This document shows positions 61,997 through 64,000 of a DNA stretch of 64,000 bases, piece after piece; position 1 is the stretch's first letter, and each line of letters starts with the position of its first letter. Source of the stretch: Balanoglossus misakiensis. Lineage: Eukaryota > Animalia > Hemichordata. The DNA lies in contig CM082592.2 of the NCBI GenBank assembly GCA_040954595.2, forward strand, positions 2,928,635-2,992,634, in the 5' to 3' direction. Under the pieces are notes generated by a model. The model was given only the letters and a program-made list of their open reading frames with translations, did no database searches and was not told the origin of the DNA. The position numbers were made by a program, and so were the translations under genes.

Positions 61997-62067
61997 CATC
62001 ATCATCATCATCATCATCATCATCAGCAGCAGCAGCATCATCATCATCATCATCAGCAGCAGCATCA
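61997..62067. repeat. (CAT)n/(CAG)n trinucleotide microsatellite, intronic
   Basis: Direct reading. Confidence 0.9.
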
Positions 62068-62132
62068 TTCCACGTACAAGCAAAGTAGTAAATATACATA
62101 TATAGATAGATAAGAACTAGATATATACATAC

Positions 62133-62135
62133 CCA
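62133..62135 (-). other. Candidate 3-nt microexon TGG (Trp) of the ROCO-GT gene
   Basis: Minus strand ...TTTGACTTTACTTCAACATAATCCAG|TGG|GTATGT, downstream of a CT-rich tract. Confidence 0.65.
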
Positions 62136-62415
62136 CTGGATTATGTTGAAGTAAAGTCAAACACCGGTAGGTATATACAACAACAAAGTCAGAGAGAGAA
62201 AGAGACAGAGAGAAAGAGAGAGATTAGTTATCGTAGTATTCAACATGTGATCCCTTAATATAACCATAATTAGTAAAACAAAGTATTATGTTCTTCTGAT
62301 TAAATATATTTAAACACAACATGCACAAGGTTAACTTTGAATGTTTACTCATAACATTCAACGTACTAGCAAAGTACTAATATACAGATATAGGAAAAGG
62401 CAGATATAAACTTAC

Positions 62416-62418
62416 ATC
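62416..62418 (-). other. Candidate 3-nt microexon GAT (Asp)
   Basis: Minus strand (CT)n...CACTGATTGCATTTGCCTTCGTAATCAAG|GAT|GTAAGT. Confidence 0.65.
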
Positions 62419-62709
62419 CTTGATTACGAAGGCAAATGCAATCAGTGGTAGGTTTAACGACAGAGAGAGAGAGAGAGAGAGAGAGAGAGAGAGAGAGAGA
62501 GAGAGAGAGAGAGAGAGAGAGAGACGTGAGTTATTGTAGTATTCAATGTGTGATCCCTTTCTAAAGTCAATATAAACATAATTAGTAATCAATTACGGTA
62601 GTGTTAAACATGTGATACATTCATAAAGTTAATATTTATACAAGTAATAAATTATAACATTCAACGTACTAGCAATGTAGTAAATATACATATATAGATA
62701 TATACTTAC

Positions 62710-62712
62710 CAA
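62710..62712 (-). other. Candidate 3-nt microexon TTG (Leu)
   Basis: Minus strand (CT)n...TTTGACGTTGCCTCTACAAAATGCAG|TTG|GTAAGT. Confidence 0.7.
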
Positions 62713-63003
62713 CTGCATTTTGTAGAGGCAACGTCAAACACAGGTAGGTACAACAACAAAGGCAGAGAGAGAGAGAGAGAGAGAGAGAGAGAGAGAGAGA
62801 GAGAGAGAGAGAGAACACGATACCTTCATAAAGTTAATATTTATACAAGTAATAAATCAAACTATGATGTTTATTCTTCTAATTTAAGTATATTTACACA
62901 CTACATGTCTAGAGTTAACGTTTGATGTTTACTTATAACATTCCACGTACTAGCAAAGTAGTAAAAATACATATATAGATTAAAGAACTAGATATATACT
63001 TAC

Positions 63004-63006
63004 CCT
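63004..63006 (-). other. Candidate 3-nt microexon AGG (Arg)
   Basis: Minus strand (CT)n...TTTGACGTTGCCTCTACAAAATGTAG|AGG|GTAAGT. Confidence 0.68.
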
Positions 63007-63370
63007 CTACATTTTGTAGAGGCAACGTCAAACACAGGTAGGTACAACAACAAAGGCAGAGAGAGAGAGAGAGAGAGAGGGGGGGGGAGAGAGAGAGAGA
63101 GAGAGAGAGAGAGAGAGAGAGAGAGAGAGAGAGAGAGAGAGAGAGAGAGAGAGAGAGAGAGGGAGGGAGGGAAAGAGAGAGAGAACATGATACCTTCATA
63201 AAGTTAATATTTATACAAGTAATAAATCAAACTTTGATGTTTTTTCTTCTAATTTAAGTGTATTTACACCCAACATGTCTAAAGTAGACTTTGGATGTTT
63301 ACTTATAACATTCCACGGACAGGCAAAGTAGTAGATATACATATATTTATAAGAACTAGATTATACTTAC

Positions 63371-63373
63371 GAA
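63371..63373 (-). other. Candidate 3-nt microexon TTC (Phe)
   Basis: Minus strand (CT)n...GTGTGACTTTGCTTCTACAAAATCCAG|TTC|GTAAGT. Confidence 0.7.
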
Positions 63374-63734
63374 CTGGATTTTGTAGAAGCAAAGTCACAC
63401 ACCGGTAGGTACAACAATAAGGGCAGAGAGCGAGCGAGCGAGAGAGAGAGAGAGAGAGAGAGAGAGAGAGAGAGAGAGAGAGAGAGAGAGAGAGAGAGAG
63501 AGAGAGAGAGAGAGAGAGAGAAATATCATTTACGGTAGTTATTAACATGTGATACATTCATAAAGTTAATATTTACACAAGTAATAAATCAAACTATGAT
63601 GTTTTTCATCTAATTTAAGTATATTTACACACAACATGTCTGGAGTTAACTTTGGGTGTTTACTTATAACATTCCACGTACTAGCATAGTAGTAAATATT
63701 CATATATAGATTAAAGAACTAGATATATACTTAC

Positions 63735-63737
63735 CTC
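63735..63737 (-). other. Candidate 3-nt microexon GAG (Glu)
   Basis: Minus strand (CT)n...TTTGACGTTGCTTCTACAAAATGTAG|GAG|GTAAGT. Confidence 0.65.
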
Positions 63738-64000
63738 CTACATTTTGTAGAAGCAACGTCAAACACAGTAGGTACAACAACAAAGGCAGAGTGAGAGAGA
63801 GGGAGAGAGAGAGAGAGAGAGAGAGGAGAGAGAGAGAGAGAGAGAGAGAGAGAGAGAGAGAGAGAGAGAGAGAGAGAGAGAGAGAGAGAGAGAGAGAGAG
63901 AGAGAGAGAGAGGGAGGAGGAGGGAGGGAGGGGGAGGGGGAGGGAGAGAGAGAGAACACGATGCCTTCATAAAGTTAATATTTATACAAGTAATAAATCA

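Follow-up and report, generated by a model that had tools for sequence, protein, structure and literature searches.

Genes and other features of the window

We analysed a stretch of 64,000 nucleotides from the acorn worm Balanoglossus misakiensis, called here the window. Several genes and repeats were recognized in it. Exons of an ELAPOR1/2-like gene occupy 2000-12400 on the minus strand, with Pfam matches to GBD_ELAPOR1 (E 9e-17, 3386-3665) and GBD_ELAPOR1-like_3rd (E 8e-12, 9321-9466). Antisense to this gene, at 3909-3912 on the plus strand, a lone AG is followed by 4 nt and GTAAGT and preceded by an AG-free zone of 118 nt; this probably arose by chance. A single-exon receptor of the rhodopsin family lies at 24033-25133 on the plus strand (7tm_1, E 8e-19). 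From about 37000 to 52400, the minus strand carries a protein-tyrosine phosphatase gene whose catalytic exons are at 43431-46337 and which includes a long low-complexity exon with no Pfam match (40534-41514). Several repeats were also observed: a 27-nt tandem repeat at 37500-37605 with an open frame of Pro/Ala/Ser/Lys repeats, units of 239 and 87 nt present twice in tandem at 46970-47453 and 26743-26914, and 128-nt tandem arrays at 52589-53058 and 55026-55480 on either side of an insert of about 1.9 kb. The ends of this insert bear 12-nt repeats, apparently inverted copies (53500-53533 and 54977-55010), and it is possibly a transposon inside a satellite.

Another gene lies at the high-coordinate end of the window, on the minus strand. 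Seven exons predicted with GT-AG splice sites span 61938 to 57023 and join into one frame of 3,300 nt (1,099 codons) whose sole stop is the terminal one. The first long exon visible (61731..61938) begins in phase 0 and encodes about 20 residues followed by the P-loop of a Roc domain. Three predicted Roc exons follow, at 61197..61486, 60839..60941 (its upstream intron ends in a (CT)n tract, 60946-60996) and 60535..60653. The next exon, 59057..60320, encodes the COR region (COR-A, E 3e-13; COR-B under the cut-off), and after a predicted short linker exon (58815..58884) the last one, 57023..58268, encodes a GT4-conflict glycosyltransferase domain (PF20706, E 7e-52) and the stop codon. The Pfam Roc match (E 4e-5) falls under the curated cut-off when the 69-residue exon is scored alone; the family profile matches LRRK2 and bacterial Roco structures. 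The predicted protein thus shows the Roc-then-COR order that defines ROCO proteins, and its GT4-conflict domain is fused in frame to the NTPase module, the frame being open through all seven exons. Rfam gave no matches in 56000-64000.

The closest kin of this gene is a Ptychodera flava protein. The predicted protein matches a P. flava Roc-COR protein at 63% along 668 residues. Among proteins of 736-2,100 residues we found 15 relatives of the COR exon; acorn worms account for 14 of them (P. flava, Glandiceps talaboti and Saccoglossus kowalevskii), and the nearest relative reaches 64%. Between COR and GT4 (58269-58814, minus strand), the death-effector domain present at this place in the closest P. 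flava model is missing, which looks like domain loss or shuffling within the family. GT4 domains are described as expanded in marine invertebrates, where they are proposed to be immune effectors, and bacterial GT4 domains as holding the effector position in LRR-AP-GTPase-COR proteins (passages of PMC8195603). Fusions of GT4 with Roc-COR are interpreted there as proteins of immunity or conflict, both in marine invertebrates and in bacteria. An immune role of the host gene is likely, as judged from domain content only.

The exon at 61938 and the N-termini of related proteins

The initial annotation had placed the start of the Roc exon at 61938 in phase 0, and this was borne out. Its acceptor is TAG, which in frame is a stop and so rules out an upstream extension of the exon. 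The first 20 residues align with the six close homologues that extend that far; a Phe at position 2 is kept in five of them, and an internal Met found 16 codons into the exon is in none. As the residues before this Met are conserved and the Met itself is absent from homologues, translation very probably starts upstream and enters the exon in phase 0.

We then looked at what the relatives carry before this exon. Nine P. flava models (two being isoforms of one gene) hold the P-loop exon, a count that leaves out five matches without it and a more distant one with an N-terminal death-effector domain. Six of the nine begin inside the exon, at a later Met, and in the other three the same exon boundary is preceded by no more than 5, 13 or 36 residues, which do not align. 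One of eight Glandiceps models has an N-terminal death-effector domain, and Saccoglossus models have ankyrin or fibronectin domains in this position. Public acorn-worm models of the family thus disagree on, or omit, everything upstream of the P-loop exon. A literature passage notes that exons under 8-10 nt are lost by common aligners. The annotation break at the P-loop junction is what hidden microexons are expected to cause, although ordinary short 5' exons fail in the same way, and we take it as an indirect hint. Protein searches and cluster look-ups returned gene models and short fragments reading into introns, with no spliced N-terminus and no single-residue isoforms among them. Fold prediction of one P. 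flava homologue from a 13-sequence alignment gave a mean pLDDT of 44.

Six candidate one-codon cassettes form a tandem array upstream of the Roc exons

Upstream of the exon at 61938, the minus strand of 62065-64000 consists of units repeated head to tail every 280-370 nt or so. Each unit has a (CT)n tract, then about 55 AG-free nt, an AG, three bases and GTAAGT (GTATGT in the last unit). Six such cassettes had been proposed in the initial annotation, and a pattern search of the window for AG-NNN-GTA[AT]GT recovered all of them on the minus strand. In transcription order, the candidate microexons are GAG (Glu, 63735..63737, TAG acceptor), TTC (Phe, 63371..63373, CAG acceptor), AGG (Arg, 63004..63006, TAG acceptor), TTG (Leu, 62710..62712, CAG acceptor), GAT (Asp, 62416..62418, with a non-consensus AAG acceptor and the most diverged flanks) and TGG (Trp, 62133..62135, CAG acceptor). 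The donor is the consensus GTAAGT in the first five and GTATGT in the sixth. The minus strand of the whole window contains nine occurrences of the motif, six of them inside the 1.9-kb array, and the plus strand none. In 1,000 dinucleotide shuffles of the array region, 946 had no motif, 53 had one and one had two, a control that treats the units as independent even though they are copies of one another.

The five introns between the triplets (62136..63734) are paralogous and measure 361, 364, 291, 291 and 280 nt. Each has one (CT)n tract, at 63425-63521, 63058-63184, 62764-62814, 62462-62524 and 62193-62223, respectively. What the window shows of the intron preceding cassette 1 is its 3' portion (63738..64000), homologous to the other array introns and with its tract at 63788-63955. 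That the array runs off the window was also confirmed: the last 60 nt match intron sequence that three units carry 141-144 nt downstream of the triplet, and therefore belong to a seventh unit cut by the window edge. At the other end, the last intron (61939..62132, 194 nt) is a hybrid. Over its first 67 nt it shares 84-91% identity with the other introns; a (GAT/GCT)n microsatellite (61997-62068) comes next, and the 3' end cannot be aligned.

In phase 0, each cassette would add one whole residue (E, F, R, L, D or W) and no stop, as had been claimed. Since the downstream frame is intact from phase 0, every subset of the triplets keeps the frame, and all 64 subsets of the six are distinct and free of stops. 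The absence of a stop among the triplets carries no significance by itself. All six encoded residues are large or charged, a feature noticed post hoc. At the DNA level, the locus presents several 3-nt exon candidates flanked by canonical splice sites, and the gene that hosts them is of the immune NTPase type, with Roc-COR.

Splice signals around the triplets

We compared the surroundings of the triplets with those of the seven ordinary acceptors of the host gene. The (CT)n tract is present in each of the six units, and one ordinary intron of the gene has such a tract too. An AG-free stretch, also noted in the initial annotation, precedes each acceptor over 111-227 nt, much of it being the CT tract itself, compared with 24-82 nt at the ordinary acceptors. 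TGC occurs within 35 nt of the AG in five of six cassettes (it is missing in unit 6) and at one of seven ordinary acceptors. A branch-point-like motif had been reported for all units; we found TTGAC at -25 in four of them and CTGAT at -27 in unit 5, while the GTGAC of unit 2 misses the yTnAy pattern. Two units contain an extra AG, which makes other readings possible: in unit 1 an AG lies directly before GT (a 0-nt reading), and in unit 3 the AG internal to AGG allows a frame-shifting 1-nt reading.

Targets of SRRM3/4 are described as having UCU_CUC followed by UGC, a distant pyrimidine tract and a strong donor (partial text of bioRxiv 10.1101/2024.09.17.613571). Tract and AG-free zone are found in six of six cassettes and TGC in five of six, counts from non-independent copies: the six units share one ancestor and their shared signals count about once. 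The layout of the cassettes matches that of published SRRM3/4 targets and, donor strength aside, of fly eMIC targets. The activity of eMIC is reported as restricted to neurons in non-vertebrate bilaterians (passages of PMC8797185), and such a restriction would be more in keeping with a tissue switch than with a repertoire of immune variants.

The triplets are the most variable sites of the repeat

To compare the triplets with their flanks, we used sites picked through the splice motif and not through their variability. Pairwise differences affect 32 of 45 positions in the triplets and 390 of 1,950 in the flanks. The best flank tree requires 9 changes for the three triplet sites, compared with 38 changes on 95 flank sites (0.4 per site), and none of 138,415 draws of three flank columns reaches 9. 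Over all 105 trees, the triplet minimum is 6 changes, a value reached by 10 of the 138,415 draws. Trios of adjacent flank columns show at most 3 changes (79 trios). Units 1, 3 and 4 illustrate this well: their flanks differ pairwise at only 4/119, 6/106 and 4/107 sites (94-97% identity), and yet each pair differs at two of the three triplet bases. In neutral simulations, which assume equal branch lengths, six different amino acids were obtained in 0.00008-0.0005 of the runs at tree lengths of 0.4-0.6, and in 0.017 of them at a tree length of 1.5, nearly four times the observed rate. Gaps affect 31 of 129 alignment columns; the triplets are constant in length and contain no CpG.

The initial annotation had stressed that AG and GT are conserved in all six units. 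Their invariance is real and says little, the same being true of 62 of the 95 flank columns without gaps; with four invariant sites (p about 0.18), we rejected this conservation as evidence for exons. The three-base sites are the most variable spot of the repeat, and this is the best evidence for their exon status. Selection acting on a translated codon would explain the pattern, either by diversifying new copies or by protecting old codons while the flanks homogenise. The claim that the triplets are exons is thus supported, indirectly, by hypervariability, by phase 0 before an intact gene and by microexon-type signals, and from these features we consider it probable that they are used as such. 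Hypervariability backs coding use and does not separate skipping from constant inclusion.

Origin of the array

No copy of the unit was found elsewhere in the 64-kb window, where the best matches are of 20-24 nt, and similarity of the last intron to the others is confined to its first 67 nt. These observations fit a tandem duplication in which an exon was copied with its flanks, rather than an insertion of whole introns. Introners are complete intron copies dispersed at unrelated sites; within the 64 kb there are none of this kind, and the last intron is a hybrid. Growth of the array may have proceeded by unequal crossing-over of the exon-with-flanks cassette.

Interpretation of the array

The explanation that we favour, tentatively and at slightly less than even confidence, is that splicing joins different subsets of the cassettes, kept in their order, and so gives a short variable peptide just before the Roc domain of a predicted immune Roc-COR-glycosyltransferase. 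Selection would have driven or kept the codon difference between cassettes. A CU tract, a UGC near the acceptor and a strong donor might lead to incomplete recognition of a 3-nt exon by the spliceosome, and incomplete recognition would in turn yield transcripts with different ordered subsets of triplets. The peptide would sit about 20 residues before the P-loop strand of Roc, where relatives bear an N-terminal domain, and could, speculatively, lie between an N-terminal part beyond the window and the GTPase switch and serve as a variable recognition or protease-bait segment controlling the glycosyltransferase. Combinatorial skipping of the candidate microexons, the core of this explanation, is in our estimate likewise nearly an even call. 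A broader version is unlikely: that acorn worms spell a variable peptide one amino acid at a time across an expanded Roc-COR immune family, with combinatorial codon-sized exons reusing neural microexon signals, with family-wide arrays that would account for the broken public gene models, and with the peptide as a somatically varied sensor or protease bait.

Other explanations share part of this evidence. The triplets could be real exons that enter the mRNA together as an invariable set, either constitutively or in a single tissue, for instance neurons; the variation would then come from copy number and from codon changes between alleles or paralogues. Either form fits the DNA no worse than combinatorial splicing does. 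This would account equally well for the hypervariability, it agrees with the consensus GTAAGT donor in five of six units, and eMIC-type regulation is described as neuron-restricted in invertebrate bilaterians (passages of PMC8797185). The layout, however, is typical of regulated and not of constitutive exons, and the case reported in Tuber is alternatively spliced according to the text available (PMC4986451, PMC10197012, PMC3689799); we hold a fixed block to be rather unlikely, if still a serious competitor. We give less credit, and call quite unlikely, the idea of a non-functional intronic tandem repeat with one inherited splice-like motif, whose triplets never enter the mRNA. The AG/GT invariance (with the p of about 0.18 given above) and the descent of all shared signals from one ancestor agree with it, as do the weak acceptor of unit 5 and the lack of TGC in unit 6. 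Such a neutral repeat nevertheless requires a mutation hot spot exactly on the three bases between AG and GT, acting without CpG and without length change while 31 of the 129 alignment columns are gapped.

The remaining explanations concern how the units are used or what they are. Tandem paralogous exons with six different residues recall the Dscam clusters, and a mutually exclusive choice of one cassette per transcript would vary a single residue. Steric exclusion works up to about 50 nt between donor and branch point, so that introns of 280-364 nt are too long for it. Docking by base pairing finds no support either within the window, to which the tests were confined, a possible upstream docking site lying outside it: pairing of the last intron with the other five does not surpass that of shuffled sequences (z +1.5 to +2.4), and the introns do not fold more than expected (z +0.1 to +0.9). 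We consider mutual exclusion improbable. Still less probable is that the repeated unit is the intron itself, either a mobile intron inserted at every third base of an old coding sequence or a series of recursive splice points. Unlike triplets would then need no diversifying selection, as they would never have been copies, and unit 1 does have an AG directly before GT; against a mobile intron, sharing of only the first 67 nt by the last intron is expected at the end of a tandem duplication, the window contains no other copy, and the other introns of the host gene are unrelated. Finally, we give hardly any credence to an array lying in a 5' untranslated region, with translation starting at the Met 16 codons into the 61938 exon. 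This Met is in frame, and the six P. flava models that begin at a later Met would agree with it. The conserved residues before the Met, among them the Phe at position 2 (five of six homologues), and the absence of the Met from all six stand against it, and it would leave the strict 3-nt size and the amino-acid diversity without a cause.

Significance and comparison with known systems

If the cassettes are spliced, single-codon exon diversification would extend from a truffle gene family to an animal near the chordates and to a second NTPase family. The array would then offer a compact natural substrate for studying how adjacent 3-nt exons are recognized, and would be a candidate for generating receptor variation that is not inherited in the immunity of invertebrates. 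Hidden microexons would also suggest a reason why models of the Roc-COR family lack an N-terminus.

In the initial annotation, splicing diversity at the level of single codons was set apart from schistosome micro-exon genes and Dscam exon arrays. The idea is less new than this suggests, as alternatively spliced codon-sized microexons are on record in the NACHT-ankyrin (nank) genes of Tuber melanosporum (Iotti et al. 2012, as cited in passages of PMC4986451, PMC10197012 and PMC3689799). According to these passages, both systems have multiple 3-bp exons in an expanded immune-type NTPase family, and splicing-based diversification was proposed for nank. In contrast, nank belongs to a fungus, has a NACHT ATPase and tens of such exons, and its splicing has been reported, whereas the acorn-worm array lies in an animal Roc-COR-GT4 gene, has at least six cassettes separated by introns of 280-364 nt with CU/UGC signals, and its splicing is a prediction from DNA. 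The visible domains are Roc, COR and GT4 in place of NACHT and ankyrin, the N-terminus lying beyond the window. In the literature searched, in which subscription journals are thinly covered, we found no tandem array of one-codon exons in an animal or a ROCO gene. The cassette pattern had no match in metagenome or viral contigs, and the family alignment gave 218 pattern matches and no confirmed locus in metagenome contigs.

Among ROCO proteins, the closest parallel in the sources consulted is that of brown-algal LRR-ROCO genes, which belong to the same GTPase family and have duplicated, variable, frame-symmetric exons N-terminal to Roc-COR, with diversifying selection and splice variants (partial text of PMC11378527 and PMC3341825). 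Their unit is a 72-bp phase-2 LRR exon, whereas that of the acorn worm is one phase-0 codon with no repeat fold. As far as the cited excerpts describe them, the microexons regulated by SRRM3/4 and eMIC share with the cassettes the 3-27 nt size class, the long AG-free zone, the UCUC tract and the UGC near the acceptor (bioRxiv 10.1101/2024.09.17.613571, PMC8797185); they are conserved and neural, whereas the cassettes are young, tandem and hypervariable. The MEGs of Schistosoma have runs of symmetric tiny exons, for which skipping has been proposed as a source of variation; the cassettes, each of 3 nt, are symmetric too. They are described as small secreted proteins, up to 75% microexon-coded (passages of PMC4015677); the visible part of the acorn-worm array would supply 6 residues to a multidomain protein of intracellular type with more than 1,100 in all, 1,099 codons being in ordinary exons. 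Drosophila Tep2 (PMC5489563) and the Dscam clusters (PMC11378527) use splicing to vary one short stretch of an immune protein, a bait-like region in Tep2, and the idea of a protease bait at our locus is a speculative one drawn by analogy with the spliced variable region of Tep2. In the parts of these sources available, Tep2 and Dscam vary whole exons of ordinary size, whereas the cassettes of the acorn worm are single codons.
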